Virus record (IMG/VR): IMGVR_UViG_3300028833_003520
Length of the DNA stretch: 64,000 nt
Reading direction: 5' to 3' (one strand)
Origin: a virus
Lineage: Duplodnaviria; Caudoviricetes
The notes below the pieces were generated by a model. The model was not told the origin of the DNA. It did no database searches and saw only the letters and a list, made by a program, of their open reading frames with translations. The position numbers were made by a program, and so were the translations under genes. Shown here one piece after another: positions 12,365-52,745 of the stretch (position 1 is the first letter of the stretch; every line of letters starts with the position of its first letter).

Positions 12365-12393
12365 TTGACATTATCCATATATGGGATTATAGT
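12365..12393 (+). promoter_or_regulatory. sigmaA-type promoter with CCATATATGG operator (copy 1)
   Basis: TTGACA-ttatCCATATATGGgat-TATAGT, 17-bp spacer. Confidence 0.85.
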
Positions 12394-12584
12394 TCGGATT
12401 AGAGATGGTACTAATCTATATTAGTTATATAGTTAATAGTAAGTACAAAAATTACGAAAAAATTTGAACGAAAACTGTTGACAAGGCTAAAATGGCGTGG
12501 TAACATCAAGTTGATGTAATCAATCGTAAGAGAGATTCATCTACGACAAATTTCAATTCTTTATAAGTAAAGGAGAAAACAGTT

Positions 12585-13121
12585 ATGGCAAACGTAAGAA
12601 AAGACGTAATCGGTCCTGACGGCAAGTCTGGTATGAAGGGCAGAGAAATCATCGCAAGAGTAGTTGAGCGTGACGAAAAGAATGGTAAGGGTTATTATAT
12701 GAATGCCCAGTTGAACCAGTCTTTCGGTAAGCCCGTGAACACAACTTCACAGCCTCATCTCGCAAAGGCTCACTCTTTCAAGGGTAATGACGGTACAGAG
12801 AGAAACTCTTATGATATTCGTCTTGGACCTAAGCAGGTAGAGGCACTCAAGGCTAATTCCAAGTCTTGCACACTCGAAGATGGTTCCACAATCTACGGTT
12901 TCACCGCAGACCTTATGAAGACCAAGGACAACGGACTTATGCCCGACTTTGGTACTCTCAAGCCCACTTCCAAGAAGATTGACGACAAGTCTTGGGCAAA
13001 GCAGTCTGCTACAACTCAGAAGGCTTTCAAGGCTGGTGAGGCACAGCGTGCTGCTAAGGCTGCTGAAAAGACTGCAGAGGCTCCTGCAAAGGATGACGCT
13101 CAGGCAGAAATCGGCGGTTAA
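12585..13121 (+). CDS. hypothetical protein, probably highly expressed
   Basis: AAAGGAG RBS; biased codon usage; own terminator; Ala/Lys-rich tail ending QAEIGG. Confidence 0.8.
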   Translation: MANVRKDVIGPDGKSGMKGREIIARVVERDEKNGKGYYMNAQLNQSFGKPVNTTSQPHLAKAHSFKGNDGTERNSYDIRLGPKQVEALKANSKSCTLEDGSTIYGFTADLMKTKDNGLMPDFGTLKPTSKKIDDKSWAKQSATTQKAFKAGEAQRAAKAAEKTAEAPAKDDAQAEIGG

Positions 13122-13145
13122 TTCGATTACCGATAATTCAACCTA

Positions 13146-13181
13146 TAGCACTCTCACTTCGGTGAGGGTGCTATTTTTTTT
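13146..13181 (+). terminator. intrinsic terminator
   Basis: ATAGCACTCTCAC-TTCG-GTGAGGGTGCTAT-TTTTTTT. Confidence 0.85.
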
Positions 13182-13283
13182 GTCCTGTTTTGGATAATTT
13201 TGTCTTGAAAATTTTAGCCCTTATCGTTAATATCAATTTATGAATATTGTTCATTGAAAATGTTGATAAAGGAGAAGAAAGGC

Positions 13284-13550
13284 GTGGAAAATTTCGCACA
13301 GGAAACGCTTTATGACTTGATGATGGAGCATCCAAATAGACTTGTTAGCAAGTCGTTCATCGAGCAAGGCGTAAATGAGTTATTAGGGGAAATCGAGAAG
13401 ATTGAGGGACGATTAGGAATAACAATGACTGAGGAGCGTAATAGAGTGGATGCCGAACAGAGAACTTGGAAGTATATGACACGCTCTAATGTTTATAATT
13501 CCGTTGAATATTTGAAACGGACCTACTACGACAAATATGGTCGTTTTTAA
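13284..13550 (+). CDS. hypothetical protein
   Basis: RBS before GTG 13284. Confidence 0.55.
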   Translation: MENFAQETLYDLMMEHPNRLVSKSFIEQGVNELLGEIEKIEGRLGITMTEERNRVDAEQRTWKYMTRSNVYNSVEYLKRTYYDKYGRF

Positions 13551-13689
13551 TCCTGATAAAAGACATCGAATGGGTATGCAAGGTACGAATTATGGGACAG
13601 AATTCGCTTGCATACAAGTCCATTATGTGTTAAAATATCCTCATAAATGAATCAAAACAGTAGTTTTGAGAATGTGAGGGTAATACATA

Positions 13690-14160
13690 ATGGCGAACCG
13701 ATGTTTCGGAGTAGATGGATTTTGGGATAGAGTTGAGATTGCGTGTCAGCAGTCTGGTTTATCCAAGGCAGAGATAGCAAGAAGAATGGGTTGCGAACGA
13801 AAGTGCCTTTATGAGAAACAGAATGGCTCTTCTGCAAGTTGGCATTCTGGTAGATTGGTTTCTTTTTGTCAGATTACAGGCGTGTCTGCTGATTGGCTTT
13901 TGGGATTATCTCGAAGGAAGAAGTTGAAGGGGAAGACTACTGACCCGATTAACTTCAGAGTGATTGATACCAAGACTGGTAAGGAACCTTTACTTGACCT
14001 AAACCACGTACTCAAAGAGAAGTGGTTTAAGAATAGTAACCTCATTTGGTGCGACCTGGAAGGTTGGATGATAAATGAAGATGGTTATCTGATACTTGCC
14101 GATGAATGTGGAAATTATGTATATCCTCCGCAGGATAGATTCAGAGTGGAATTTGTTTGA
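13690..14160 (+). CDS. XRE-family HTH regulator with C-terminal beta domain
   Basis: GLSKAEIARRMGCERKCLYEK...FCQITGVSADWLLG. Confidence 0.8.
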   Translation: MANRCFGVDGFWDRVEIACQQSGLSKAEIARRMGCERKCLYEKQNGSSASWHSGRLVSFCQITGVSADWLLGLSRRKKLKGKTTDPINFRVIDTKTGKEPLLDLNHVLKEKWFKNSNLIWCDLEGWMINEDGYLILADECGNYVYPPQDRFRVEFV

Positions 14161-14173
14161 TAGAGGAAGAAAG

Positions 14174-21202: not shown

Positions 21203-24200
21203 GTGGCAAAGCGAAATTGGGATTTAGTTCGTAAACAGCAGAACGCTGATAAGTTGCAATATCGTGATGTATATGAAGACCAGCAGATGGAACGAAGCAA
21301 GTTGCCTGCAAAGCAGACAGCGACGGCTCGTACCATATTTGCTATCGTAGTTGCTCTTATGGCTGCAGGTGCAGCGTATGCGATTGCGTGTGTCTTCGGT
21401 TCATTGTTTAGCGGTTTAGGGGATATAGGAAGTACAGATACAGGTTCAGGGGGACAGGGTACTGTCATAGAACAGCCTTCGGAAACCGCTTCATCAACAG
21501 GTGTCAGAATCGAGAGTGGCACTGTTATTAAGGATTCCGTTGTTGTTATCAGTACAACGACAGGTGAGACATTAGATACTTGGGTTTATACGAACCTTGA
21601 TAACGGTGACGTAAGGTATATCTGTGATGCTCATCCTGGTTATTCTTTTGCAACAGAGTATGAAATCGCAGATGGTTACAAAAATGGCGTATGGTATTTA
21701 GATGAAGCCGCACAGCAGAGTGCTACATCAGTTTATTGGGATTACCATACGACGTGGATGACACTTTATCGTGGTGACCCGAACGGGGAACACACGGAAA
21801 TAGATACTTGGGAAAATACAGGTGGTGTTTATGGTGAGCAGTACACTTGCTCTAATCATCCGTCTTTCAGTTTTAGCGACCAAGAATCCGTTGAGGCTCA
21901 TTATGATTCCGAAGGTAATTGGTCAGATACAGTAGTTTCACAAGGTAATGCAGGACAGGAAAGTTCTACAGATAGCGGTGATATGCCGTCTATATCCTTT
22001 GGTGTGGACTGGACTCCTTCATTCGGTAAGATTTTATTTGCAATAGCCGTTGGTGGTATTGTTTTTGCTCTTTTACACACGGCTATGATGCGTAACTTGA
22101 AAGCACAGAATATGCTTTCAGATACCTCTGATATTAACCAATATCAGAACGACCAGCATATTGCTCTCCCTGAAGAAATTCAGGAGAAGTTTGACTGGTT
22201 TCCCGATGTTGGTGCGACCTCGGATGTACAATTCTCGTCAATGATTTCGCATATGGCTCTTTCTAACAAGGGTATTAAGAAAGTCAAGTTCTCGAAGCGT
22301 GCAGATAAGGATATCTACGACGCAGACGGAGATATTGAATACTATAAGGGCGAAGTTCTTCTTGATGATAATGGACAGCCGATTCAAACAGAGGTTCCGA
22401 TGTTTGATGAGCAGTTTATGGAAGACCTTTTTACTGCTTCAGGTGCTCCCCCGAAGGATAAAACGATTCGTAAGTATTACGATGCGACGAAGATTAAGTA
22501 TAATCCTGACGGAAGCAATCGAGATAAACTTGGCAAGTATAACACAGTTGCAGACCTTATCAATGCCGATTGGGAATTGCCTTATTATGAACCTCAAAGA
22601 CCTGCAGGTGCATATATCGTAGATACTGCTCCTGTAAATACGATGGTCTTGGCTATTACCCGTGCAGGTAAAGGTCAGACTGTAATCGAGCCTACGCTCG
22701 ATATGTGGATGCGTGAGAGAAGACCTAACAATATGGTTATAAATGACCCGAAGGGTGAGTTGCTCGTTAAGAACTATGTTAGAGCAACTGTTAGAGGTTT
22801 CCAAGTTGTTCAGTTTAACCTTATCAACGCTATGAAAACCGACATTTATAATCCGTTAGGAATGGCAGCAGAAGCCGCACGAGAAGGAGACTTCACCAAA
22901 TGTGCAATGTACGTCGAGAACATCGCAGATGTATTCTTCCCTCTTGACGGTGGTGATGACCCTGTGTGGCCTAATGCTGCGAACAACGCATTTAAGAGAG
23001 CATCTTATGGTCTTATCGACTATTATCTTGAGGAAGAAAAGGAGTTACGCCTTTTCGCCGAAAGAACGAAGATGGACGAAAAGATACTTGAGGCTAAATT
23101 GGACGAGATGTGGGGTAAAGTTACGCTTTACAACACTTATCAGTTGTTCGTTCAGTTGACTTCGAAGAAGTTAAAGAACCCTTCTGTTGAATTCGCAAAG
23201 AAGGCAAAAGAGGGTGAATATGATAATCTTTCTGATGAGGATTATGATATCGAACTTAATAAGGTTGAGAGACAGTCTTTACTTTGGGAAGACAAGCCTG
23301 AGTGTGACCTGTTGACCTTGTACTTCAATGCAACAGATGCGTTGCCGAGAAACTCAATGAGAACTCTCGTTGCAAACGCAAACAATGCGTTGAAGGCGAT
23401 GGCTGGTGCTGAGAAGATGATGGCATCCGTTTACGGTATTGCTATCACGGCTATGTCGTTCTTCACAGACCCGACGATTTCAACACTGACATCAGGCACA
23501 CCTTCGCAGAATGTTGACCTTGCAGGTCTTTCATTCCCTCGAAGATTAGGCGTAAGATTTAACTCAGACTTCGTGCATAACTATCATCTGATTGGTATGC
23601 AGGCAAAATGGATGAGTTACGAGGACGATAAGTTTACGAAGGAACTCGGTAAAGACTTTTATCACGAAGACCTTATTACAAGAGAAGGTTGGGCAAAGTA
23701 TTACTTCAAGGGCAAGTACCCTAATGATGTTGCTTATGTTAAGTTATCTATCGTTAATCCGAAGACGGAATTGACAATCAGAACATTCTACTTCCAGTTT
23801 AAGAAGAACTATCAGACTTCATTGGACGGACGTAAGTACGTGCTTGACCCTGTACTCAATGAGAAGATAGTTAAGAATGGTATTCTGACAGAGTTGAGAC
23901 CGTTCAGACAGGAGACGAAGGATGGTAAGCAGGTATTAGTACCGCTTGCTATGGGTGAAAAGCCTGATGCGAACACAGTTTATAAGAAAGGTAAGACGAC
24001 TTTTGCTCAGGATAAGATTATCAATATCACTGGCGACTCCACGAGGGGACAGGTTCAGACCAATGCTATTATCAGAACGATGGCTCGTTATGCAGAAAAG
24101 CCGAAGATGGTATTCTTGGTTACACCTCCTCACTTGATGAAGTATGCGAAGTTGATTCTTATTCTTATCAAGCAGTTGGTTGACTTGAACTTCGACCAGT

Positions 24201-25579
24201 CTTATATGACGAAATCCAATCAGAAGCCTCTCTATAAGACGAGATTTATGTTGGATGAGTTAGGTAACCTTCAGTCCGAAGGACACGGTATTTCAGGCTT
24301 TGAAACGATGCTTTCTATCGGTCTTGGTCAGGAACAGCAGTTTACTCTTATCTTGCAGACATTACAGCAGTTGAGAGACGTTTATGGAGACTCTGTTGAT
24401 AAAATCGTTCAGGGTAACACATCTAACATTGTGTTCCTTAAATCAACGGATGACTCAATGCTTGATACTCTGCAGAAAATGTCTGGTACAACGCATAAGT
24501 CTTTTACTGATTCAAAGACAGTAACAAGGGATATGCAGGAGATTTTCCAAGGTATGAGTGCTAACGAAGGTAAGGCATCTTATACGATGACTACTAAGGA
24601 AGTGCCTGTTATTTCGTACAACGATATGGCGTTCATTTCTGAGCGTAATAGTATTGTGTTCCGTGCAGGTGATGCACCGATTTGGAACAGAAACGAGACT
24701 ATCCTTCCGATGTCTTGGAGACTTTTCAAGAATACTATTACACAGCCTGGTAAGGAATATACCTTGCAGACGATACCGACACTTTCTTCGGCTATCGACT
24801 TCGATGTACGTAAGAATCAGCCTGACTTCCAGAAGATGCTTGATAAGCGTATGGCTCAAGCAAATAAGGCTCCTGATGCAAAGAGTTTGTATCAGATGTC
24901 TTATGATTTCACTGATTATCAGATGGAACAGCAGGACCCTGATATTCTCGCAGATGAAATTATGGATATCATTAACACATATATCCGTGAGGCAAATACT
25001 GACGAGGAAGAAGAGGAAGTATTTGACTATGATTTCGGCGAAGACGATATGTGGGGTTTTGCAGAAGATGATAGTTCAACACAGGAAATGGTCAGTGCTA
25101 TCGCTAATGGACAGTCAATCCCTGTTAATGGCGTAGATAAGACCTTTGTAGGTGTTGATAAAACTGCTTCAGAGAAGCGTTTCGCAGGCGGTCTCTTATC
25201 ACCTGATATGCTCGTCAATGCGTCAGGTATAAACCATAGTCTTGATAAAGACATCATTAAGGTTTACACAGATATTAAAGGCGACTTATGGCGTGATACA
25301 GCGTACTTTGTTGTACGCAATGGAGACCTTTATGGTATTAACAATGAGCCTTATATCATTAAGGCAGATAACTCCGAAGCCCTTGAGGTATTGAATAATG
25401 CCGCCAAGGATGAAGATAGTAACGTCTATGGTGACGAGGATATTGATATATCTGAAGTCCATTCATTCGGCACTTATACAGTAACGGATGGTTTCTATCG
25501 CTTCCTTGCAGGGCAGAAGAGGTGGTCTTTCGCAAACGGTAAGTTTGAAGAGGCTATGTATCGACAATTAGATTCGTAA
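21203..25579 (+). CDS. virD4: VirD4/TraG-type type IV coupling protein
   Basis: Two N-terminal TMs flanking an extracellular domain; Walker A AITRAGKGQT; VINDPKGEL; YNPL; Walker B FMLDELGNL; LILQTLQQL...YG; NTSNIVFL. Confidence 0.88.
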   Translation: MAKRNWDLVRKQQNADKLQYRDVYEDQQMERSKLPAKQTATARTIFAIVVALMAAGAAYAIACVFGSLFSGLGDIGSTDTGSGGQGTVIEQPSETASSTGVRIESGTVIKDSVVVISTTTGETLDTWVYTNLDNGDVRYICDAHPGYSFATEYEIADGYKNGVWYLDEAAQQSATSVYWDYHTTWMTLYRGDPNGEHTEIDTWENTGGVYGEQYTCSNHPSFSFSDQESVEAHYDSEGNWSDTVVSQGNAGQESSTDSGDMPSISFGVDWTPSFGKILFAIAVGGIVFALLHTAMMRNLKAQNMLSDTSDINQYQNDQHIALPEEIQEKFDWFPDVGATSDVQFSSMISHMALSNKGIKKVKFSKRADKDIYDADGDIEYYKGEVLLDDNGQPIQTEVPMFDEQFMEDLFTASGAPPKDKTIRKYYDATKIKYNPDGSNRDKLGKYNTVADLINADWELPYYEPQRPAGAYIVDTAPVNTMVLAITRAGKGQTVIEPTLDMWMRERRPNNMVINDPKGELLVKNYVRATVRGFQVVQFNLINAMKTDIYNPLGMAAEAAREGDFTKCAMYVENIADVFFPLDGGDDPVWPNAANNAFKRASYGLIDYYLEEEKELRLFAERTKMDEKILEAKLDEMWGKVTLYNTYQLFVQLTSKKLKNPSVEFAKKAKEGEYDNLSDEDYDIELNKVERQSLLWEDKPECDLLTLYFNATDALPRNSMRTLVANANNALKAMAGAEKMMASVYGIAITAMSFFTDPTISTLTSGTPSQNVDLAGLSFPRRLGVRFNSDFVHNYHLIGMQAKWMSYEDDKFTKELGKDFYHEDLITREGWAKYYFKGKYPNDVAYVKLSIVNPKTELTIRTFYFQFKKNYQTSLDGRKYVLDPVLNEKIVKNGILTELRPFRQETKDGKQVLVPLAMGEKPDANTVYKKGKTTFAQDKIINITGDSTRGQVQTNAIIRTMARYAEKPKMVFLVTPPHLMKYAKLILILIKQLVDLNFDQSYMTKSNQKPLYKTRFMLDELGNLQSEGHGISGFETMLSIGLGQEQQFTLILQTLQQLRDVYGDSVDKIVQGNTSNIVFLKSTDDSMLDTLQKMSGTTHKSFTDSKTVTRDMQEIFQGMSANEGKASYTMTTKEVPVISYNDMAFISERNSIVFRAGDAPIWNRNETILPMSWRLFKNTITQPGKEYTLQTIPTLSSAIDFDVRKNQPDFQKMLDKRMAQANKAPDAKSLYQMSYDFTDYQMEQQDPDILADEIMDIINTYIREANTDEEEEEVFDYDFGEDDMWGFAEDDSSTQEMVSAIANGQSIPVNGVDKTFVGVDKTASEKRFAGGLLSPDMLVNASGINHSLDKDIIKVYTDIKGDLWRDTAYFVVRNGDLYGINNEPYIIKADNSEALEVLNNAAKDEDSNVYGDEDIDISEVHSFGTYTVTDGFYRFLAGQKRWSFANGKFEEAMYRQLDS

Positions 25580-25653
25580 GTGTCCATCATAATTCTTCTT
25601 TTCTTGAGACAGGTTCAGTTTCGGCTGAGCCTGTTTCTACTTTTTAGAGCAAG

Positions 25654-25772
25654 AAAAAAAAAAATCGCCCTTTCATAGAAAGGACGACTTTTTAAGAAAA
25701 GGAAATATATGAGAATATTGATTACTTCTATCAATATTTGTCATTGTTTTTAACGCTGTATTTATTTTACCA
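25654..25772 (-). ncRNA. predicted sRNA with the same architecture as the 10-11 kb array
   Basis: Minus-strand TGGTAAAAT (25772-25764); body containing UUCUCAUAUAUUUCCUUUUCU (anti-AUG/anti-SD); terminator GUCGUCCUUUC-UAU-GAAAGGGCGAU plus U-tract. Confidence 0.5.
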
Positions 25773-25812
25773 TTCTTTGCCACATCTATTTCTGTAAAAA
25801 GTGCAAAATAGA

Positions 25813-25878
25813 CTAATATGCAAGATATTGCTTGTTAAGGGTGATTTTATCGTCTAATATGCAAGATATTGCATATTA
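25813..25878. promoter_or_regulatory. duplicated palindromic operator TAATATGCAA-n4-TTGCATATTA
   Basis: CTAATATGCAAGATATTGC at 25813 and 25854; second copy is a full inverted repeat. Confidence 0.6.
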
Positions 25879-26089
25879 ACATTATTGTCAGATGGCTGAA
25901 TCGCATTTTGTAAATCACCATAAAGATTCAGACAGGCTACCGAAACGAGATAAAACCGTTGAGGGAGAAAAGACGCAAATAGAGACGGCATTCGCGTTGC
26001 CGTGATAATTGCAACTGCGAGAGCCAAACGGTTGCGGATAAGTCTGATACTTTATGTATATTCTGACAATGATTCTTAATAAGTATAAC

Positions 26090-26118
26090 TTGACAATCTC
26101 CATATATGGCGTTATACT
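26090..26118 (+). promoter_or_regulatory. CCATATATGG promoter (copy 2), upstream of the RNAP operon
   Basis: TTGACA-atctCCATATATGGcgt-TATACT. Confidence 0.85.
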
Positions 26119-26185
26119 GACTTCAGTGGGCAAGGCTCACAATTCTGTATGTATTCTTATAATTTTCGAAAGGAGAAATAAGACA

Positions 26186-26812: not shown

Positions 26813-26887
26813 TAACATAACGAAGCGAGGAAGGTGGAGGGAACTTCACCTTCTATCGTATTTCGTTAGATAAGGGGAACAAATTTT

Positions 26888-33405: not shown

Positions 33406-33434
33406 TTGACTTTCTCCATATATGGTGTTATATT
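33406..33434 (+). promoter_or_regulatory. CCATATATGG promoter (copy 3)
   Basis: TTGACT-ttctCCATATATGGtgt-TATATT. Confidence 0.85.
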
Positions 33435-36790: not shown

Positions 36791-36803
36791 GGATGTGATG
36801 TAA

Positions 36804-37352: not shown

Positions 37353-37366
37353 AGGAGAGTCATATT

Positions 37367-39346
37367 ATGGCGACAAGAGACCAGTTGGGAACCGATGCAA
37401 TTCTTACAGATGCTCAGAAGCAGTATAACAAAGAGCATCGTATGGATAATGCGAAGAAATCGGCAAATGCTGTAAAGGAGAAGATGAACGCTATTGCAGA
37501 AAGGGAATCAGAGCGTTATAACGCTCACCCTGTACTTCATCCTATGAGAAATATGCTCATTATGAAGGGTGTTCAGTATGGTGCTTCTGCAGCGATTTCT
37601 GCGGCGGCAGTTACGGCTCCTGTTGTATATGTGAATCATCGAATGAACAAGAACTTCAAACAGGAGTTCAATGGAATGGGTATGATGAAGTATGCAAAGG
37701 AATATAAGAAAGGCTATAAGAAGGCTGTTAAGGCTGGAAATATGGCTTTTGAAACCGATAAGGACTTTGGACTTACCGAAATGAAATTCGGTGAATATAC
37801 AGGTATTAAGTTACAGAAGGATTCGGAGAACTGGCGTACAACTGTCCTTTCTTGGTTTGACGCAGATGATGAGGCTCAGCGTCTTAATGACCGTGATAAC
37901 GATATAAGACGGCACGAGGCACATATGGCATTCGAGCGTGAAAAAGCCGAAGAAGAGATGCGTAAGCGTAAAGAGGAAATGCGTAAGATGGCAATTCCTA
38001 TGATGGCTTCTGAATTCTTTAGAAATCCTATGATTATTAGGCATTTGGCAGGTCTTAATTCAACTGCGGCACCTAATATGGCAGGATATGAGAATGATTT
38101 CTTCAATAATGCCGCACCGTTTACTAAGGCAGAAGCAATGCCACAGGAAAATACAGCGAAGCCACAGTCTGCTCCTGCAATGAAGGATGTTACTCCTAAT
38201 CAAGCAGATACGGCAGAGCCGATTGTTTATGGTAACGCTCCTGAAGCCAAGCCTCTGCTTGGTGCAGGTAATCAAGTAGTATCTCCGTTACCTGAATTCT
38301 GTGATGATTATCAGGTCGTGCAGATGTCTCCGCAGGTTTTGGAAGCATATACTTCTATGCAAGGCGAGTTTGCTCAAAACTCACCGCTTTATGCTCAGGC
38401 TGCATTGAGACAGCGTACAGACTGGTACGGTCTTCCCGATGGCACATTGGTTGAAGACCTTCAGACATTACAGAGTGCAATGTATTTGCAGTATATGATG
38501 GCAAATATGGCAGACGGTTCTATCACTACTATGAATGATATGGAGTGGTATCAGAACCGTTTCACAGACCATTGGACTGAGTTTGAGCAGACAGCGTTAA
38601 TGCCGAAGTATGGTGATAGGATTAAGGCATTCTATGAATCCAAGAATAAGACACCTTCAAAGGCAGAGCAGATTATGATTGATTCAAACGAGCACAAGTA
38701 TCAGGCTATTGAGCGTGGTACAGAGCCGAAGATTGCTATTGAATCTGCTCGTAAAGAGTCTTCAGTAGGTTTAGGCAGATATGCCGCAAAGACTATAGCA
38801 GATGTATTTGCAGAAGCGGCAGCAAGACATCAGTTCGAAGAGAAGGGAACTATTCCTGTTGCTATCGAACAGAAAGGCGAGGCTATCGCATTGCCTGACA
38901 ATTCTATGAAAGAGAATGATATGCCAGTAGTCGCTGTAAATAGTCTTCCTGAAAAGACGAATGATATGCCAGTAGTCGCTGTAAATAGTCTTCCTGAGAA
39001 GACGAATGAGATGCCTGTAGTGTCTGTGAATGCTCTTCCTGATAAGTCAGGTGGTATGCCTGTAGTTATCAGACCGAACGAAGCGACGGTTGAAGATAAG
39101 GATAAATCGGTAGTGGCTGAAGCAGGTGAGGATGAAGTCAAGGATGATAAGATTGGAACAACGAATGTTGGTTCAGAGAAGAAGAAAGAACATCGTAAAG
39201 TTCCTGCAGGCATAGCGGCTATAGCAAGTGAAGCAAGGAACTTGGATAAGGCATCTAACTATGTTGATGCTGTTCGTAACAGAGATGAAATGAAAGATGT
39301 TCCTGCAGTAAATGAAGCAATAAAAGATAGTGGAATGCAAATGTAA
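37367..39346 (+). CDS. hypothetical protein with internal 15-aa repeats
   Basis: AAAGGAG RBS; NDMPVVAVNSLPEKT repeats; tail HRKVP...SGMQM. Confidence 0.75.
   Translation: MATRDQLGTDAILTDAQKQYNKEHRMDNAKKSANAVKEKMNAIAERESERYNAHPVLHPMRNMLIMKGVQYGASAAISAAAVTAPVVYVNHRMNKNFKQEFNGMGMMKYAKEYKKGYKKAVKAGNMAFETDKDFGLTEMKFGEYTGIKLQKDSENWRTTVLSWFDADDEAQRLNDRDNDIRRHEAHMAFEREKAEEEMRKRKEEMRKMAIPMMASEFFRNPMIIRHLAGLNSTAAPNMAGYENDFFNNAAPFTKAEAMPQENTAKPQSAPAMKDVTPNQADTAEPIVYGNAPEAKPLLGAGNQVVSPLPEFCDDYQVVQMSPQVLEAYTSMQGEFAQNSPLYAQAALRQRTDWYGLPDGTLVEDLQTLQSAMYLQYMMANMADGSITTMNDMEWYQNRFTDHWTEFEQTALMPKYGDRIKAFYESKNKTPSKAEQIMIDSNEHKYQAIERGTEPKIAIESARKESSVGLGRYAAKTIADVFAEAAARHQFEEKGTIPVAIEQKGEAIALPDNSMKENDMPVVAVNSLPEKTNDMPVVAVNSLPEKTNEMPVVSVNALPDKSGGMPVVIRPNEATVEDKDKSVVAEAGEDEVKDDKIGTTNVGSEKKKEHRKVPAGIAAIASEARNLDKASNYVDAVRNRDEMKDVPAVNEAIKDSGMQM
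38914..39066 (+). repeat. 45-bp in-frame tandem repeat (~3.3 copies)
   Basis: gaatgatatgccagtagtcgctgtaaatagtcttcctgaaaagac twice, then degenerate copies. Confidence 0.85.
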
Positions 39347-39875: not shown

Positions 39876-40041
39876 GATTTGCTCGGTATTACATAACACA
39901 AAATAGGCATTGTCGGTGTTTGATAATGCCTATTGTTTTGCTTTCATAAAATAGTGAAAATGCTCATAAATGAGTTGATTTACGGTATTTTGTATGTTAT
40001 AATTGCATTCGTAAAGATGTTGTTTTAGAAAGGAAATTTGT

Positions 40042-43753: not shown

Positions 43754-43807
43754 CGAATTTACAAGAGTAACGGGTTTGTCGGTGTTTGATGAACCCGTTA
43801 TTTTTGG

Positions 43808-43836
43808 TTGACTTTATCCATATATGGTGCTATAGT
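43808..43836 (+). promoter_or_regulatory. CCATATATGG promoter (copy 4)
   Basis: TTGACT-ttatCCATATATGGtgc-TATAGT. Confidence 0.85.
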
Positions 43837-43877: not shown

Positions 43878-44423
43878 ATGGCAGATGATAACAGGCAGGA
43901 AATGATTGATTTACGTCAATCTATTAACCTTCTTAATACCACTATCGAAGGACTTCAGAGTGAAGTTAAGAAGATGAACGAGCGTCTCGATAAGATTTCT
44001 GAGAATACTAAGGACACAGTTACGGCTGTTAAAGAGAATACTCAGTACACTGTTAAGTCGGGTAACTCTATTGTTAGTGCTGTTGATAAGAATACTGAGG
44101 CAACGAAGAATGGTGCTGAAAGAGTAGCAGGCGTTGTTCTCGAAGGTTCTGAGGCTCGTAGGGCGTTCTTTGACCAAATTTTAGCGGCTCAGAGACAGCA
44201 GCAGATGGCGAACGGTGGTCCTGGTATTGCAAAGGAAAGCCTCAATGCTGACCAGTTAAAGCATTTTGCTTCACTTGGTAAGACAGCAGACGACCTTCCT
44301 GCAAACATTAAGTTGGCAGATGGCGTTAACGGTAAGAAAGGTGTGAACCTTAATATCCGTCAGAGACGTACTCCTGATGTTCCCACAAGTGGTGAGGGAC
44401 CTGCTTCTCCGCAGATGGAGTAA
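43878..44423 (+). CDS. coiled-coil protein with RRTPDVP...QME tail
   Basis: AAGGAGG RBS; own terminator at 44443-44473. Confidence 0.75.
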   Translation: MADDNRQEMIDLRQSINLLNTTIEGLQSEVKKMNERLDKISENTKDTVTAVKENTQYTVKSGNSIVSAVDKNTEATKNGAERVAGVVLEGSEARRAFFDQILAAQRQQQMANGGPGIAKESLNADQLKHFASLGKTADDLPANIKLADGVNGKKGVNLNIRQRRTPDVPTSGEGPASPQME

Positions 44424-44479
44424 TCAATCTAAAACACTTATAGTAAGGGCTTATCGTAAGGTAAGCCCTTATTTATGGG

Positions 44480-44508
44480 TTGACTTTCTCCATATATGGC
44501 GTTATACT
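44480..44508 (+). promoter_or_regulatory. CCATATATGG promoter (copy 5)
   Basis: TTGACT-ttctCCATATATGGcgt-TATACT. Confidence 0.85.
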
Positions 44509-44547
44509 GATTTTAAGTTAAAAATCTATGTTTGAAGGAGATAGATT

Positions 44548-46140
44548 ATGAAGTATTCTTGCAATAATACGACTTTCAACGGTGTTCGTGTAAACGATAC
44601 TATTGATGAGTTTAGACGAGATAAATATACGAATGAAGATTATAAAGGGTACTTTGCTCGTCTTGTAGCCGTAGGCGAGAGACCGTATGATGTTCAAAAG
44701 ATTGGTGCTTCCAATGAGCGTTGTGATGCGGCGATTGCTATATTCTCAGAGCACGAGCCTTACAGGGCTATTTATGCTGTACCGCTTCCTGAAAAGTATG
44801 GTGAGTATGAGCGTGAAGATGGCACAAAAACTGCAAAGTTTAATAAGCCGTTATCAGAGTTCTGGGAGAAAGCAAGGAACTATAATATCGAAATCAATGA
44901 GAATAATCCGTTCATTGTTGATGCCAAGTTTAAGATAAAAGTTGGTAATACCAATGTCACTTATAATGGTCCTGTTGCTGTTACATCAAGATGGAACATC
45001 AATGATGATTTCAAGGGTTGTGTTGATGAGAAGACAGGCAAGACAAATTTAGATAATGTTAATGATGTTATGTATAAACATCAGAATAGTCTGATTTGCA
45101 CTTGTCTTGAAGACAATGGTATGTTCAAAAAGGGCAATATCATTGTGGCTGAACCTGGTGGCATCTATGATGTCAGTGTTAATAAGGTTTATACAGGCAA
45201 CAACAAAGGCACAAAGGAATATCTTGACTTTGTGGGTGATGTTGAAGCCAATCGTTATGAGTCTATCTCGAAGATGAGAGCCGATGCAAAACAGGCAAGA
45301 CACGAAGCCTATGAAGCAGAGGTATTGAGACTTAAGAGATATCAACGTGAGGCTGGTCTTGAAGGTCGTACAGCGTTTGAGAACAACGATACACCGTATG
45401 CAAAGATTACTTTGCGTGATATGAGAGACGATATGGTATCGCCTTATTACAAAGGTTATGTCGCTCTTGTAGATAAGCCTGGTTATCGTGACGGAGAATA
45501 TGACGAATATTATCGTCTTAAGAACTTAAAGACTGATTTGGCAGACCATAGATTAACTATGGGTGGTCGTGATTATGTCAACGGTGATTGGATGTCAGTT
45601 TACGAAGATAATCTCTTTGTAGATGAAGTCATCACAAAAGACCATCCTGAATATGCAAAATGTCAGGCTTTGGAAAAGCAGTTTGACGATATGCACGCTA
45701 ACGCACCTTATGAAATTACGGGTGTTATTTACGGTATTGATGCAACTTATGCTGATTATGATAAGGATAAGGTATATCCTCATTATGAACAGATTGAGGA
45801 GAAGACTTGGACTCCTAAAGATGTGCATTCTCTTGAGGATGCAGAGAAGTGGATTCTTAAGAATCACCCTGATTATTATATCGGATTTAGTGCATCGCAA
45901 AAGTGCCCAAGCGGTAATTTCCGTTGTGGAGCCGTACCTGGCTTCTATGGAAGAGAGGTAAGCGAAACTTATGAATCTCGAAGGAAATTTGCACAAGCAG
46001 AGGCAGATAAGTTAGGTGTTACTCTTGGACCTGTAGAACACGACAAAGACGGTAAGTTAATCGCACCTTCTTCAAGAAGAAGACTTCCTGATGTTCCGAA
46101 TGCAGGAGTTGATAATGATAAACAATATGGAGAGGAGTAA
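44548..46140 (+). CDS. multidomain hypothetical protein with RRRLPDVP...QYGEE tail
   Basis: GAAGGAG RBS; 530 aa. Confidence 0.75.
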   Translation: MKYSCNNTTFNGVRVNDTIDEFRRDKYTNEDYKGYFARLVAVGERPYDVQKIGASNERCDAAIAIFSEHEPYRAIYAVPLPEKYGEYEREDGTKTAKFNKPLSEFWEKARNYNIEINENNPFIVDAKFKIKVGNTNVTYNGPVAVTSRWNINDDFKGCVDEKTGKTNLDNVNDVMYKHQNSLICTCLEDNGMFKKGNIIVAEPGGIYDVSVNKVYTGNNKGTKEYLDFVGDVEANRYESISKMRADAKQARHEAYEAEVLRLKRYQREAGLEGRTAFENNDTPYAKITLRDMRDDMVSPYYKGYVALVDKPGYRDGEYDEYYRLKNLKTDLADHRLTMGGRDYVNGDWMSVYEDNLFVDEVITKDHPEYAKCQALEKQFDDMHANAPYEITGVIYGIDATYADYDKDKVYPHYEQIEEKTWTPKDVHSLEDAEKWILKNHPDYYIGFSASQKCPSGNFRCGAVPGFYGREVSETYESRRKFAQAEADKLGVTLGPVEHDKDGKLIAPSSRRRLPDVPNAGVDNDKQYGEE

Positions 46141-46145
46141 ATAAA

Positions 46146-46505
46146 ATGGCTAACGAGAATGTTGCATACACCATATTCAAAGATAGTCACGGACGTGAAA
46201 AGTTTCGTGGTCTTTGGGATAACAACGGTGTTCCAACGCCTGTTGAAGTTAGACTTGATTATGGTAAGCATAAATGGACTGATAAAGAGATTATGTCTCT
46301 TCTGAAAGGCGAGGAAGTCCAATTAGACTCGTTTGAAACGAAGGGTGGTAATCAGATGCCTATTTCGGGCAAACTCGGTCCTCAGTCTTATATGGGTCGC
46401 CCATATATAGGCTTTGTAAGGACAGATGCAGAAGCCACAAAACGAAGACTCCCTGAAGTTGGTGGAGTAGAACCTACACAGCCTCAGGCAGAAATGGAGG
46501 GATAA
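46146..46505 (+). CDS. topoisomerase C-terminal-repeat (Toprim_Crpt/DUF3945-like) small protein with KRRLP tail
   Basis: WTDKEIMSLLKGEEVQLDSFETKGGNQMPISGKL resembles the repeat consensus, recalled by eye. Confidence 0.55.
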   Translation: MANENVAYTIFKDSHGREKFRGLWDNNGVPTPVEVRLDYGKHKWTDKEIMSLLKGEEVQLDSFETKGGNQMPISGKLGPQSYMGRPYIGFVRTDAEATKRRLPEVGGVEPTQPQAEMEG

Positions 46506-46509
46506 GCCT

Positions 46510-47124
46510 ATGTCTTCTGAATCTTTACGTCCAGATAATCCACAAAAGTCAATGCCATTTAGATTGGTTGATTTACAGAGACCAAGAAACGGTATTGATT
46601 TAACTCGCAGAAGTGTTATTTACGAAGGTCAGGAATATTTCGTAAGAATTGGTGCATATTCAAAAGGACAGATGGCGTTGCGTTTTGAAGCGAAGAATGC
46701 GGAAGCATTCAAGCCAGGTGTTGTCCAGAGTTCTGTTAAGCCTATCAGGGTTACTTGGAACTTGGGTAACTATATAGGAAGAGAACGTCCTATGCCGAAG
46801 AATAGCAGTTTTTTGAATACGCCCGAATTTCCTGGCATTGAGGATTTTGTTATGAGTACGGGAGTAGCAAAACCTGTACTTCGTAATGGAGAACAAGTTG
46901 TACGCTGTCATAGAGCCAACAATGAGTGGTATCCTGCTTATGAATTTGACGAGAAGAAGTTGAGAATATTAGACCCCGAAGGGTATGAGCGTTATTCTCA
47001 ATCTTATGATAGGCAGGCAGCCGAGGAAGAGAAGATGAAGACAGCAAGGCTGTCAAGACGACACGGTTCTTGTCCTCAGTTGGAAACATATGACGAGGTT
47101 GTCTTGGACGACGCACAGTTCTAA
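46510..47124 (+). CDS. DUF4313-like protein
   Basis: Y..GQMALRF...VTWNL...SFLN..EFPGIEDFV..TGVAKP...YPAYEFDEKKL...PEGYERY, recalled by eye. Confidence 0.55.
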   Translation: MSSESLRPDNPQKSMPFRLVDLQRPRNGIDLTRRSVIYEGQEYFVRIGAYSKGQMALRFEAKNAEAFKPGVVQSSVKPIRVTWNLGNYIGRERPMPKNSSFLNTPEFPGIEDFVMSTGVAKPVLRNGEQVVRCHRANNEWYPAYEFDEKKLRILDPEGYERYSQSYDRQAAEEEKMKTARLSRRHGSCPQLETYDEVVLDDAQF

Positions 47125-47209
47125 AAGCCTTTATTTTATTAGTTGTCAAATACTCATTTATATGGTAAAATCTCCTTATAAATGAGTATTTTTTATTGGA
47201 GTTAGTGAG

Positions 47210-48937: not shown

Positions 48938-49013
48938 TTACGACTAACCAAACTTTATACTCATCTCACGAAATTAGAACTGTGTCGGTGTTTGATGCAG
49001 TTCTAATTTTTGA

Positions 49014-49042
49014 TTGACAATCTCCATATATGGCGTTATACT
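49014..49042 (+). promoter_or_regulatory. CCATATATGG promoter (copy 6)
   Basis: TTGACA-atctCCATATATGGcgt-TATACT. Confidence 0.85.
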
Positions 49043-49089: not shown

Positions 49090-49407
49090 ATGGCATTTTC
49101 ACAGTCATCATTGAATAGTCATAAAGATTTGGCAACAAGTGGTATTTCTGAAGAAGAATGGATGAAAGACGATTCTTTGGTTAAAACAAGTGATTTAACT
49201 GAGGAACAGAAGGTTCGTCTTGATAAGATAATGCAACCACCTGTATCAAGATTTAATTCACAGATACGTAAGCGTTTGCAAACTTCTCCAAGACAGGAGA
49301 GGTCAGATTTTATCATTATAAATGAGAAGCCGTCTAATAGAAGGCTGCCTAACTTACCTTCACAATTGACGAGTGATAGAGATTTAGGAGACGATTTTGA
49401 TGGATAA
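49090..49407 (+). CDS. small protein with NRRLPNLP tail
   Basis: AAAGGAG RBS. Confidence 0.7.
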   Translation: MAFSQSSLNSHKDLATSGISEEEWMKDDSLVKTSDLTEEQKVRLDKIMQPPVSRFNSQIRKRLQTSPRQERSDFIIINEKPSNRRLPNLPSQLTSDRDLGDDFDG

Positions 49408-49410
49408 GGC

Positions 49411-49435
49411 TATGGCGTTATACTGATTTTAAGTT
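49411..49435 (+). promoter_or_regulatory. 3' half copy of the CCATATATGG promoter
   Basis: TATGGCGTTATACTGATTTTAAGTT, identical to 44495-44519. Confidence 0.7.
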
Positions 49436-49465
49436 GGGAATCTATGAGCAAGAGAGGAAAAGTCT

Positions 49466-50266
49466 ATGACAAGTAATAACCGTCAATTAAAAGCAACACC
49501 TTCTGGTGGTGATATGAACAGCAAAGAACCTAATATGTTTACGTTCTATGTTGATAATTACGGTAGTTATCCTCAAAATAAGCCTGACAGTATCGCTCTG
49601 TATGGTAAAGAGAATATTCCGTTCTTGAAGGATAAGAGCATTGATGAAATCAAGAATGCTCATATGTACTGGGGCAGTGATGAGGCGAGAAGTAGGGAAC
49701 TTTTAGGTATGTATAACGGTGATACGATGGTACTTTTCGGTGATATTGAAAAGTTACCTACAGAGTATAAGCACGATGCCGAATTGATGACACCAAAGTA
49801 TGTTGCAGAGCGTGTACAGAAATCGAAGATGATGAATGTGTATGCTCCTGATGATTTATCGAAAAACTCTTTTTATCTTATTACTTTGGGTAGCAAGGAC
49901 GAAGATGGTGAGGTTTTCCCTGGCATTGAGAGATTTAATCCTGACTATGAGGGAGAGAGTGTTGATGATATTACAAATCATCTTTGTGAGTTCCTTTCAC
50001 AGACAGACAAGGCTTATGTAGATAATCAGAAGTGGGTTCACGAAGTTTACGAAGGAAAAGACCAAGTTTTCGGTAAGTATGTTAACGATATTAGTGATAA
50101 AACGATGAATAAAATCTATGAGGAAATCAAGGGCTATGGTAAGGCATCAGAGATACCTACCATTAAGTCACAGGTAGTAGATTTAAGAAAGAGTCAGAGG
50201 GCAAATCGTAGATTGCCTGATGTACCCGATGTGCAGAATGATAATGAAAAGCAATGTGGAGAGTGA
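49466..50266 (+). CDS. hypothetical protein with NRRLPDVP...QCGE tail
   Basis: GAGG RBS; 266 aa. Confidence 0.75.
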   Translation: MTSNNRQLKATPSGGDMNSKEPNMFTFYVDNYGSYPQNKPDSIALYGKENIPFLKDKSIDEIKNAHMYWGSDEARSRELLGMYNGDTMVLFGDIEKLPTEYKHDAELMTPKYVAERVQKSKMMNVYAPDDLSKNSFYLITLGSKDEDGEVFPGIERFNPDYEGESVDDITNHLCEFLSQTDKAYVDNQKWVHEVYEGKDQVFGKYVNDISDKTMNKIYEEIKGYGKASEIPTIKSQVVDLRKSQRANRRLPDVPDVQNDNEKQCGE

Positions 50267-50280
50267 AAGGAGATTAGCGT

Positions 50281-51510
50281 ATGCCTAATTACAAGAGAGG
50301 TCGTATGGGACCTGATAAGTATTTTGATTACTTAGTAGAGCAAGATGAACAGCGTGTTCGTAATGAGAAGGTCGATTCTATACGAGAGACTATCTTTGGA
50401 CCTGCATCATATCAGTCACAGGCAGACGAGGAAAGAACTCAGAGGCAAACAGAGTTTGCTAAACTTGTCCTTGACGGTAAGATGGACTATAGCAGAGCCA
50501 AAGCCAATTATGTTAATAAAAACACGGCTGTAGATTACGAGTGGTTAGCCACGAGAACTGATTCTCAATTGAACAAAGGATTGTTTCTTCGACAGAGATT
50601 TCAGCAGGATGCAAGCGAAGATGAATCCGCTTTGAAGAAGAATATTGAGAATATTAAGAATGAACCCTGTGTATATTTGAGTACGTGCCGTGAGTTACGT
50701 ATAGAGCCAACATCGAATCGTAGCGAAGTGCTTAAACATAAGAGCGATTATGTAGCGTCCTTTGATACGGATGAGGAAGACTTTTTGCGTAAAAAGGCGG
50801 CTGAGTTGGAGTCAAATCCTAATCAGTTGAAAGATTATCTGAGTGTGGCTGCACAGGAAGAGATAATGGATATGCGTGCCAGTGATGAGTGGGTGAAGGC
50901 AAATGGCGGCATACATTTGGATAATGCTAAAAAGTATGGCGAAGGCATTAGACATTTGGATGAGCCGATTCGTTATATGAGCAAATCGTCACAGCAGATG
51001 TTTTATCAGTCCATTATGGATTATATGAAGGAGTCTGCGTTGGGTCCTGATAAGAATCATCCGCTATTTGATAGACCACATAGTTTCACACCTGACCAAG
51101 AAGCAGAATTGCTTTGTAGGTCTAATAAGTGGTATGCGAAGGATTTTGATGCGGCGTATGATACGGCATTCCATAAAGACGGACCTTTGTTCCCGTATCA
51201 GTTTGTTAATCACAGTGGTATGAAACTTAATGAGCAGATGGTTCGTATTCCTGATGATAAGTTACCGAAGGAGCGTTCTTACTTTACAGGTAAATTTGCG
51301 TCTTTGGGATATATTAAACCGAATCCCGATACTGAGAGTGCAATGAAGAAGCAAGAAGGTAGTGCACGTAGGATGCCTGAAACTCTTGCAGATATTCAGC
51401 CGAACCCTGATAGCGTAACGAATAAGCAAGATGATAGTGCACGCAGGATGCCTAAAACTCTTGCAGATATTAAACCGAATCCGAATAACGGTATGCAGTT
51501 AGGAGAGTAA
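50281..51510 (+). CDS. hypothetical protein with duplicated SARRMP tail ending QLGE
   Basis: AAAGGAG RBS; 75-bp duplication in the 3' end. Confidence 0.75.
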   Translation: MPNYKRGRMGPDKYFDYLVEQDEQRVRNEKVDSIRETIFGPASYQSQADEERTQRQTEFAKLVLDGKMDYSRAKANYVNKNTAVDYEWLATRTDSQLNKGLFLRQRFQQDASEDESALKKNIENIKNEPCVYLSTCRELRIEPTSNRSEVLKHKSDYVASFDTDEEDFLRKKAAELESNPNQLKDYLSVAAQEEIMDMRASDEWVKANGGIHLDNAKKYGEGIRHLDEPIRYMSKSSQQMFYQSIMDYMKESALGPDKNHPLFDRPHSFTPDQEAELLCRSNKWYAKDFDAAYDTAFHKDGPLFPYQFVNHSGMKLNEQMVRIPDDKLPKERSYFTGKFASLGYIKPNPDTESAMKKQEGSARRMPETLADIQPNPDSVTNKQDDSARRMPKTLADIKPNPNNGMQLGE

Positions 51511-51514
51511 TGAT

Positions 51515-52189
51515 ATGGCTAATAAAAAAGCGAAGAAGAGTCTTGCCAAGACGAATACGAAGCCGTCTGTTAAGAAGTCAAATGGTGGTGAATCCAAGAC
51601 TGTAGCGAGTGAGCGAAAGGAAGAGATGAACCTCGATTTAGGTGTCTATGCTGATGGTACTCCGAAGGATGATAAGTTTGCAAAGGCAAAGCAGTTGAAG
51701 GACAAGGGTAATAAGGATGTTACTGATGGCGTTGTAAATCAAGCCAAGAATGCACCTGGACTTGCCATTGGTATTCTCACGACCGCAGGTACTTTAGGCG
51801 GTGGAGCCGTTGTTGGTGTACCGATGATAGTCGGTGCGGCACCTGGTATTATCAAAGGCAAGTATCAGGAAACGAAGGGCAAGATTGAGTTGGCTCAGAG
51901 TGGAATAGAAGCCAATAAGGTTATGAAAGATAATGATATGACGAAGGAAGAAAAGAAGGCGGCTCGTCGTGAGTTAGCCGAGTACAATAAGGATTCAGTC
52001 AAGCGTGCTATTAAGTCCAAGCCTGAGGAAGTTAAGAAGACTCTTGATGATACGAAGGATGCTTTAAGTCAGATTGCAGAGGAAACGAAGAAGTCTGATG
52101 TACACGCAAAGCGTGTAAAACAGGCTAATAGCAGATTGAGTATTCCTGAAACAAGTTCAGTAAACAAGGGTGTTGAACTTGGCGAATAA
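51515..52189 (+). CDS. Lys-rich protein with Gly-rich hydrophobic hairpin, tail KRVKQA...ELGE
   Basis: APGLAIGILTTAGTLGGGAVVGVPMIVGAAPG; architecture like 26186..26812. Confidence 0.75.
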   Translation: MANKKAKKSLAKTNTKPSVKKSNGGESKTVASERKEEMNLDLGVYADGTPKDDKFAKAKQLKDKGNKDVTDGVVNQAKNAPGLAIGILTTAGTLGGGAVVGVPMIVGAAPGIIKGKYQETKGKIELAQSGIEANKVMKDNDMTKEEKKAARRELAEYNKDSVKRAIKSKPEEVKKTLDDTKDALSQIAEETKKSDVHAKRVKQANSRLSIPETSSVNKGVELGE

Positions 52190-52329
52190 GCCGAGAATAT
52201 AAAGTACAGTGTTGGCGTAAATAGTCTGGGTGCATAGTCGCTCAGACTATTTATTTTGAAAAATGTTGACAAAACTATGGTTTTATCTATATAATTGATT
52301 TCAAGAATAGGGAAAGAGAGGTGATAGAA

Positions 52330-52710
52330 ATGGCAAGACCTAAAAAGGACGGACATTCAATCAATGTATATCTTGATGAAATGCAGTATAAGAATTTGGC
52401 TGCATTTGCTACTATGTCAGGTATGACAAAGACCTCTATTCTTGAAGAGGCTTTGAAGCGTTTTCTGGCTCCTTATTGTGAGGACGAGGAAATTAAAGCC
52501 GTACCTGCATTGCTTATCAAGGGCAATTCTGAACTTGATAAGAAGATGGCAGAAAACGAGGGTAGAGAGGTTACGATTACTGAGACTCCTTGTTTTGTAT
52601 TAAGTCAGGAAACGGTCTTTAATCAGCCTTATTATCGAATTTATGAACCGTCAATATCTCAGATGATGAAGGTTCCGATAGAACATATTAGGTTTCCTTC
52701 GAAATCTTGA
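52330..52710 (+). CDS. ribbon-helix-helix regulator with C-terminal domain
   Basis: MARPKKDGHSINVYLDEMQYKNLAAFATMSGMTKTSILEEALKRFL; own TTGACA/TATAAT promoter at 52265. Confidence 0.75.
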   Translation: MARPKKDGHSINVYLDEMQYKNLAAFATMSGMTKTSILEEALKRFLAPYCEDEEIKAVPALLIKGNSELDKKMAENEGREVTITETPCFVLSQETVFNQPYYRIYEPSISQMMKVPIEHIRFPSKS

Positions 52711-52716
52711 TTTACA

Positions 52717-52745
52717 TTGACAATCTCCATATATGGCGTTATACT
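52717..52745 (+). promoter_or_regulatory. CCATATATGG promoter (copy 7)
   Basis: TTGACA-atctCCATATATGGcgt-TATACT. Confidence 0.85.

Follow-up and report, generated by a model that had tools for sequence, protein, structure and literature searches.

In the 64,000-nucleotide stretch analysed here (IMG/VR record IMGVR_UViG_3300028833_003520; hereafter the window), one near-identical promoter carrying the 10-letter palindrome CCATATATGG in its spacer heads nearly all operons of a set of proteins that share a C-terminal tail. The window is part of a 243.5-kb element that is a giant rumen conjugative plasmid. On balance, we lean towards reading this promoter, which we call class 1, as a housekeeping-sigma promoter combined with a spacer operator for one dimeric regulator, likely encoded by the element and likely a repressor, through which the cargo would be controlled jointly.

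Class-1 promoters and the tails of the proteins behind them

The 29-bp pattern TTGACW-N3-TCCATATATGG-N3-TATANT has seven matches in the window, all on the + strand and all without a mismatch where three were allowed; 100 shuffles gave none. The 11-mer TCCATATATGG, searched with at most one mismatch, occurs at the same seven sites only (0.9 expected), and the window therefore holds no decayed copies. An earlier note on this DNA had reported full copies at these seven places, each with a palindrome-bearing 17-bp spacer, and our exact-match scan agrees with it on both points. A start codon and ribosome-binding site lie 33-61 nt downstream of each copy, with the exception of 12365, and a purine is found 7 nt 3′ of the -10 in six of the seven. 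The copies and the two features associated with them are the following (aa, amino acids; RNAP, the RNA-polymerase-like protein of the plasmid; RHH, ribbon-helix-helix).

12365..12393, + strand: class-1 copy with TTGACA, 17-bp spacer containing CCATATATGG, and TATAGT; heads gene 12585 behind a 185-nt leader
26090..26118, + strand: class-1 copy; heads 26186 (208 aa) and the RNAP gene 26888-33298 (2136 aa)
33406..33434, + strand: class-1 copy with TGn extended -10, directly 3′ of the RNAP gene; heads 33485-39346
43808..43836, + strand: class-1 copy with TGn extended -10, directly 3′ of a terminator hairpin; heads the single-gene unit 43878-44423
44480..44508, + strand: class-1 copy; heads 44548-47124
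49014..49042, + strand: class-1 copy directly 3′ of a terminator hairpin; heads 49090, and 49466-52189 through read-through
52717..52745, + strand: class-1 copy 7 bp past the stop codon of the RHH gene 52330; heads 52788-55331
49411..49436, + strand: 3′ half copy made up of the right palindrome half, TATACT and conserved leader sequence; repeats TATGGCGTTATACTGATTTTAAGTTG
52731..52768, + strand: perfect inverted repeat of 17 bp, found at copy 52717 alone

The 3′ half copy at 49411, also claimed before, is real: its identity to the full copies ends at the palindrome centre, so that it has neither a -35 nor a left half-site. It shares its first 12 leader nucleotides with promoters 44480 and 49014, a weak -35-like TTGATG lies 16 bp upstream of it, and 26-bp direct repeats stand on either side of gene 49090. 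At 52717, the right half-operator and the -10 are repeated in inverted orientation in the leader, which creates a third half-site, ACGCCATAT. An eighth full copy is located 5.4 kb upstream, at window coordinate -5407, in a locus (L144) that is identical to the window in the overlap and adds 9.6 kb leftward. It heads a 501-aa tail-bearing gene ending ...KKRRLPD...ELEL, and the same locus contains an operon of five more tail-bearing genes, the promoter of which lies beyond the locus. A stretch of 74 kb thus contains eight class-1 promoters, in which the palindrome occupies -25 to -16.

Proteins encoded in the motif-headed units have, some 20 residues before the C-terminus, a basic-proline box of the form RRLPxVP or similar, and mostly end in hydrophobic-Gly-Glu (the RRLPxVP...GE tail). 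With tail definitions that were set after seeing the data, and with genes of one operon that are not independent of each other, an RR.P box near the C-terminus was found in 9/23 genes of motif-headed units versus 1/41 others (Fisher p = 2e-4), and the box or a ...GE end in 13/23 versus 1/41 (Fisher p = 1e-6). Tested by unit, the link had p = 5e-4 with the strict tail rule and p = 3e-6 with the lenient one. The proposal of the earlier note that promoter and tail mark the same gene set is borne out by these figures, and it extends to related elements. The tail-bearing genes of the window include the following.

43878..44423, + strand: tail-bearing gene (181 aa), ...RQRRTPDVP...PQME
44548..47124, + strand: three-gene operon with two full tails (RRLPDVP...YGEE and RRLPEV...EMEG) and one partial tail
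49090..52189, + strand: four tail-bearing genes (49090, 49466, 50281 and 51515)
52788..55331, + strand: three-gene operon with ends ...QLGE, ...QIGE and ...GYGE

The first products of units 12365 and 26090 have weak tails (...AEIGG and ...DGYGY). Gene 41840 had been counted among the tagged ones, which is not convincing: its product has no RR.P box and ends ...DDKQKE. As for the unit of copy 12365, it does comprise 12585 as claimed, and it may end before gene 13690, which has a site of a second operator class (class 2, see below) and probably its own promoter. The genes behind the different copies are not paralogues, and an all-against-all BLASTP joins them through their tails only; duplication of operons therefore does not account for the repeated promoter. 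The operons behind the class-1 promoter probably constitute one switchable cargo set.

Two side observations concern the surroundings of these promoters. Inside the 185-nt leader of 12365, a second promoter-like site (12477-12505, TTGACA-17-TAACAT) has in its spacer ATGGCGT, a match to the right flank of the operator. Terminator-like hairpins at 43762-43806, 48984-49013 and 39902-39934 have unrelated stems and the common loop TGTCGGTGTTTGAT; the first two stand directly upstream of class-1 promoters, and the third upstream of the promoter of 40042.

Conservation of the promoter in related elements

Among the proteins of the window are a type IV coupling protein of 1458 aa, the 2136-aa RNAP and a ClpB-like ATPase with two rings. 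Relatives were found via pattern scans of public genomes and metagenomes, then by searches with the coupling protein and the RNAP. Altogether, 36 non-redundant class-1 copies are present in at least six elements, including the window plasmid. The main relatives are listed here (MAG, metagenome-assembled genome).

L140, a 222-kb scaffold: coupling protein 81-83% identical; class-1 promoter present
L141: coupling protein 69-75% identical; class-1 promoter present
L048: class-1 promoter present
G001, a fragmented MAG: coupling protein 60% identical; 19 palindromes versus 1 in a reversed control
JAEEGL rumen contigs, about ten: class-1 promoter present

While the cargo proteins differ between relatives, the promoters stand at the same places. 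Syntenic copies follow the coupling-protein gene in L140 and in G001 (contig C363), precede the small gene before the RNAP gene in L140 and L141, and lie directly after the RNAP gene in L140, L024 and G001 (contig C180). The RNAP is flanked by the class-1 motif in five elements, and these promoter places are kept at RNAP identities of only about 28-60%. The link between promoter and tail is also seen in G001, L028, L048 and L140, including where the tail sequence differs. Indeed, the tails of L140 and L048 are of the window type (RRLPxVP...GE), while those of G001 and JAEEGL have hydrophobic-Met-x-Lys about 20 residues before an acidic end. Promoter class and tail therefore go together even after a change of tail sequence. 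A further tail, PxGMVDxLS...DxF, is found in L143 (16208-22778), which is without a class-1 promoter.

The pattern of conservation is sharply delimited. In the 34 copies that have the palindrome in the window's register (register 0), no variation is seen in TTGAC, in the ten letters of the palindrome or in the T that precedes them, and the -10 reads TAnnnT in 34/34 with its inner positions free. On each side of the T-CCATATATGG block, three positions are free to vary, and all 36 copies have a 17-bp spacer. When two mismatches were allowed anywhere in G001, all 10 mismatches over 12 sites fell at -10 positions 3-4, with none in the -35 or in the palindrome core. Choosing sites by their hexamers only (TTGAC-N18-TAnnnT) in 230 kb of family DNA gave 54 sites: 34 with a perfect core and 20 with at least 5/10 mismatches, with nothing between. 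A conserved leader is not common to the different elements and the downstream genes are non-paralogous; it is therefore the stretch from the -35 through the -10 that is under selection. Since neither the spacer flanks nor the leader are homogenised, recent copying alone does not explain the conservation.

Promoters of the sigma-70 type keep an A at -11 and a T at -7 and leave the inner -10 positions free. The hexamers, the spacing (17 ± 1 bp) and the tolerance profile of the class-1 copies are those of a housekeeping sigma, which fits the earlier note in its reading of them as sigma-70/sigmaA-type promoters heading the tail-protein operons. As far as the letters go, a housekeeping sigma together with a separate, very specific reader of the palindrome would produce such a pattern. 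In two G001 promoters the palindrome is placed 3 bp further downstream, abutting the -10 and still inside the 17-bp spacer. This shift would fit steric occlusion better than a geometry-dependent activator, because a reader that is only in the way needs no fixed face toward the polymerase.

The distribution of the motif has limits. CCATATATGG was not found within 10 kb on either side in L142 and L143, the coupling proteins of which are 62-68% identical, and the pattern scan of the viral_contigs collection gave no class-1 match. The promoter scan of genome_contigs (GTDB species genomes) returned G001 element contigs and singletons in unrelated taxa only, and no host chromosomal regulon of class-1 promoters was seen in it. 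Matches in Sphingobium, Victivallaceae, Phycisphaerae, Sebaldella, Faecousia, Clostridiaceae and Eubacteriales contigs were set aside as unrelated single promoters; all they demonstrate is that ArsR-type or XRE-type proteins can have palindromes of this sort as operators. All 19 palindromes of G001 lie on contigs of 1.6-7.2 kb, most of which read as element fragments, with two palindromes in apparent coding sequence. This MAG, with at least 17 short contigs of a related element (C87-C404), is labelled Candidatus Limenecus (Melainabacteria, Gastranaerophilales), a label that points either to the host or to mis-binning. Assemblies also appear to break at the repeated promoter, L048 beginning and ending inside a class-1 promoter.

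A comparison of the RNAP with PLSDB plasmids and a phage collection found distant plasmid homologues only (24-33% identity) and no phage match, hence no closely related annotated element. In genome_contigs, a single-protein search gave no match and an alignment-based one gave 80 loci, mostly in Actinobacteria, none with the class-1 motif. The pairing of a large coupling protein with a single-chain RNAP (21203-33298 in the window) is widespread in Actinobacteria (Streptomyces, Arthrobacter, Microbacterium, Plantibacter), where both searches returned the same genome contig; the RNAP loci scanned there are without class-1 promoter.

Proposed control of the cargo and its alternatives

A second operator class is present in the window. 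With at most one mismatch, CTCATWWATGAG is found 8 times versus 0.84 expected, and ATAAATGAG occurs 11 times versus 1.2 expected.

13640, 16600, 16812, 16877, 39963, 41418, 41802, 47153/47175 and 6819: class-2 sites, near the promoters of non-tail units

The promoters in question are those of 13690, 16638, 40042, 41460, 41840 and 47365, together with that of the operon (16922 onward) that leads from ClpB to the coupling protein. Among the relatives, L140, L141, L025 and L134 have the site as well, and L142 and L143 contain degenerate versions of it. Judging from site positions, the element appears to keep two groups of genes apart: the cargo and the RNAP in class 1, and the ClpB-coupling-protein operon with other non-tail units in class 2.

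In the mechanism that we propose, each class-1 copy would be an intrinsically strong promoter for the host RNA polymerase with its housekeeping sigma, and CCATATATGG at -25 to -16 would be the operator for one sequence-specific dimeric regulator. This regulator would most likely be encoded by the element and would most likely act as a repressor, blocking binding or opening by the polymerase. All class-1 operons, with the tail-tagged proteins and the plasmid RNAP, would then be switched together, and the class-2 operator would separately control the transfer machine and the housekeeping units. Four parts of this scheme are inferred: the sigma type, binding of the palindrome by a protein, repression as opposed to activation, and the source of the regulator. 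The earlier note had similarly placed one regulator in the spacer, with the cargo co-produced. The invariance of the spacer palindrome speaks for this, and we infer a single dimeric regulator; the regulators that it named as candidates (RHH 52330, XRE 13690 and MerR-like 6450) are not supported, the first being linked by position only, the second having motif-free homologues and the third lacking a nearby site.

XRE 13690 (13690-14160) has by eye a clear N-terminal helix-turn-helix (HTH), with Pfam matches below threshold only. It belongs to 72 homologue clusters at 44-99% identity, mostly 55-67%. Three inspected homologues (among L136-L139) are part of phage-like replication modules, where DnaB and primase genes flank them; these loci come from scaffolds of 44-196 kb and contain no CCATATATGG. 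Others are on contigs of up to 220 kb. In L140 only the HTH part is present, and no homologue was found in the L141 locus, which has a class-1 promoter. XRE 13690 looks like a shared phage/plasmid module rather than a plasmid-specific regulator, and we disfavour it as the reader of the palindrome on account of its homologues in motif-free phage-like modules and the negative search of the L141 locus. MerR-like 6450 is a 65-aa excisionase-type HTH protein without dimerisation helix, encoded beside a primase gene, and the palindrome was not found within 5 kb of it. In MerR-type promoters, a dyad operator lies in an over-long spacer of 19-20 bp that the regulator untwists; this mechanism is ruled out by the 17-bp spacer in all copies.

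52330..52710, + strand: RHH protein (126 aa), with its own palindrome-free promoter TTGACA-18-TATAAT at 52266-52295

RHH 52330 has a 59% homologue in L048 between two class-1 copies, and it adjoins promoter 52717, the sole copy with the third, inverted half-site. Its family has 51 clusters, the two closest of which (45-49% identity) are in contigs without the palindrome, and one homologue group lies two genes upstream of a T4-type portal gene. The 665-aa neighbour of this phage-context homologue is not similar to gene 52788 and is without a Pfam match. The support for RHH 52330 as the regulator is positional only. Its paralogue RHH 16638 is surrounded by class-2 sites. Searches of G001 for RHH 52330, XRE 13690 and both RHH 16638 orthologues gave nothing meaningful, which in such a fragmentary MAG is no evidence of absence.

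RNA contigs allowed the predicted units to be compared with transcripts. They come from four sheep-rumen metatranscriptome runs (X1-X4; two samples, two studies), taken as assembled contigs and matched to the stretch at ≥99% identity. Among the matches listed, contig boundaries fit the predicted units. For unit 43878, contigs start at 43858, 43868 or 43873 and end at 44434 or 44448; among the matches listed they are the deepest of the class-1 units, with 5-15 times the depth of their neighbours in X1, X3 and X4. Unit 44548-47124 has contigs starting at 44530 (X1) and 44538 (X2), both adapter-capped, and ending at 47097-47147. No contig among the matches listed covers 44449-44528, a gap that we do not use as evidence on its own. 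In unit 49090, contigs start at 49040 or 49061 and reach 52130 or 52215 across the half copy. These starts lie 19-30 nt past the -10, with the exception of 49040, which is inside the -10 box. Palindrome-free promoter-like sites have an offset of 19-42 nt (contig starts in brackets): 39417 (39470), 39975 (40032) and 47143 (47190, 47213). With such an offset at sites without palindrome too, it looks as if 5′ ends had been lost in the usual way. Promoters 43808 and 52717 are themselves spanned by contigs (the latter from 52354 onward). Sharp depth steps at gene ends argue for RNA, and the contigs hint that transcripts begin just downstream of the class-1 promoters.

Several points weigh against a repressor-controlled regulon. 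The depths of class-1 units are similar to those of neighbouring units, with 43878 much deeper, and class-1 promoters are therefore not silent in the rumen samples; such contigs cannot fix a transcription start, and DNA carry-over is possible in these libraries. A 10-bp palindrome is short for a classical HTH dimer. Among the candidates examined no cognate regulator is supported, and no DNA-binding gene lies demonstrably downstream of the motif, so that no autoregulatory loop was seen. Moreover, most copies outside the window were found by searching for the motif itself, a bias that the hexamer-only and mismatch-tolerant scans remove only in part.

One alternative is an activating or architectural protein, such as one of the two HU-family proteins encoded in the window (39462, 41460) or another bending dimer, which would bind the flexible ATATAT centre and raise expression of the cargo operons together. 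A CC-(A/T)6-GG pattern does suit minor-groove bending proteins, class-1 units are expressed in the rumen samples, and among the matches listed the RNA contigs over 39462 are the deepest in two runs. We nevertheless hold this to be unlikely, given that hexamers and spacing are already at consensus and leave an activator superfluous, that the 3-bp shift in two G001 promoters would rotate it by about 100 degrees, and that no HU homologue was found on the related contigs examined. The reader might also be a transcription factor of the host, the element borrowing a host signal for the timing of its cargo. Host regulator sites are known from the promoters of mobile elements, and in unrelated MAGs chromosomal genes for ArsR-type and XRE-type regulators have promoters with similar extended palindromes. 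Yet the species genomes scanned have no chromosomal promoter set, the G001 palindromes are on short contigs only, and the motif is kept in elements from different samples, which leaves us with little confidence in a host factor.

The likeness between copies could also come from mobile promoter cassettes, in which promoter and hairpin are recombination sites that shuffle cargo and gene conversion keeps the copies alike. The break of 49411 at the palindrome centre, the 26-bp direct repeats flanking 49090, the hairpins directly upstream of 43808 and 49014, the variable cargo at constant promoter places and the two ends of L048 in the same promoter would all suit such cassettes. Gene conversion, however, would homogenise the flanks, and these vary around a core that is invariant across coupling proteins of 60-83% identity; we regard cassettes as an improbable cause of the pattern, one that is compatible with, and not exclusive of, a spacer operator. 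It is very unlikely, in our view, that the element's own single-chain RNA polymerase recognises the class-1 sites, alone or with a host sigma, as a self-contained unit for a new recipient. Its gene is driven by the motif and motif-flanked in five elements, and the protein has a tail-like C-terminal end and about 900 N-terminal residues without assignment. The -35 and -10 hexamers, their spacing and the tolerated changes are nonetheless of the housekeeping-sigma type, and L143 has an RNAP (36% identity) without the motif within 24 kb, while L141 (37%) has the motif. Equally unlikely would be a palindrome that serves as an address by which the plasmid RNAP, or a co-delivered factor, fires the cargo regulon in the recipient before plasmid protein synthesis; if true, this would be a transferable, self-priming transcription circuit. 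Promoters of the Frpo type depend on a long hairpin of the transferred strand, which restores the -35 and -10 in duplex form. Folding of the + strand as single-stranded DNA gave z = -0.4 to -1.6 in 5/7 copies, with 52717 (z = -4.3) and 33406 (z = -2.9) as outliers that fold well. A common hairpin like those that some injected phage polymerases use was not seen, which also counts against recognition by the plasmid RNAP; with no shared fold in the + strand, we reject a Frpo-type single-strand hairpin promoter as a class feature.

Known systems and neighbouring features

As regulation, the class-1 promoter with its proposed spacer operator is a variant of a known plasmid theme. A literature search on this palindrome as a plasmid operator found nothing. 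KorA binds a 12-bp symmetric operator (OA) at seven promoters of RP4 (PMC2665229). The likeness to KorA/OA of RP4/RK2 (IncP-1) lies in a short perfect palindrome at about seven strong sigma-70-type promoters of one conjugative plasmid, a layout that would let several operons be switched together, and in the presence of another operator class for other operons (KorB/OB there, class 2 here); here too, the same palindromic operator is found in the core of several promoters of one element. In regulons of this type, the cognate repressor is plasmid-encoded and usually autoregulated. The two systems differ in that the class-1 operator is in mid-spacer and that of KorA at the -10, in having no sequence relation, in the host, which here is not a proteobacterium, and in the regulon, which comprises tail-tagged proteins here and replication, partition and transfer genes there.

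In R388, strong promoters are held by plasmid repressors and give a burst of transcription after transfer (PMC3937220). The class-1 copies are similarly near-consensus promoters with repressor-type sites in their core, and by analogy a burst in a fresh recipient followed by shut-down might be expected here. Six repressors in negative-feedback loops are described for R388, whereas no feedback loop was seen for the class-1 promoters. In the Pant promoter of phage P22, the RHH repressors Arc and Mnt bind between -35 and -10. The spacer location of the class-1 operator and the RHH genes on the element make a small dimeric repressor a plausible reader; in P22, however, one promoter is concerned, against a dispersed regulon here, and the RHH link is positional only.

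The hrp-box and PIP-box promoters of type III effectors define regulons of secretion substrates. Likewise, PmrA and CpxR sites are found upstream of Legionella Icm/Dot effector genes (PMC2701608). As in these regulons, a shared cis element and a terminal protein signal mark the same gene set in the window, where the cis element co-occurs with a putative secretion signal. Those are chromosomal sets of pathogens with proven translocation and known regulators, while here a plasmid carries putative cargo behind a core-promoter operator. Finally, the PeSL promoter/stem-loop cassettes of T4-type phages (PMC2839356, PMC4122927) resemble the class-1 units in that promoter and hairpin modules flank variable genes, and the half copy at 49411 resembles a recombination scar. 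PeSL cassettes are without an invariant internal palindrome, and a cassette role of the class-1 units is hypothetical.

The promoter offers a second mark of candidate cargo, at the DNA level and independent of the protein tail. Because it is constant where tails differ, it can be used to list candidate cargo across the plasmid family. In addition, one 10-bp site is a simple experimental handle and makes the cargo hypothesis testable. More broadly, the two operator classes suggest that these large rumen plasmids from uncultured hosts have two or more separate regulons, each defined by its own operator, with a logic comparable to that of the best-studied proteobacterial plasmids.

Every gene between 12.5 and 55.3 kb is on the + strand. 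Besides the genes discussed above, the window encodes a MazF toxin and many proteins without a Pfam match. The ClpB-like and coupling-protein homologues of relatives carry LAGLIDADG (intein-type) insertions (L141 4601-7504 and L142 4742-7636; also P0126, P0130 and P0139), of which the window copies are free. Just downstream of the last class-1 operon, at 55787-56458 on the - strand, sits a full-length ROOL RNA (Rfam RF03087, 198 bits versus a threshold of 99).

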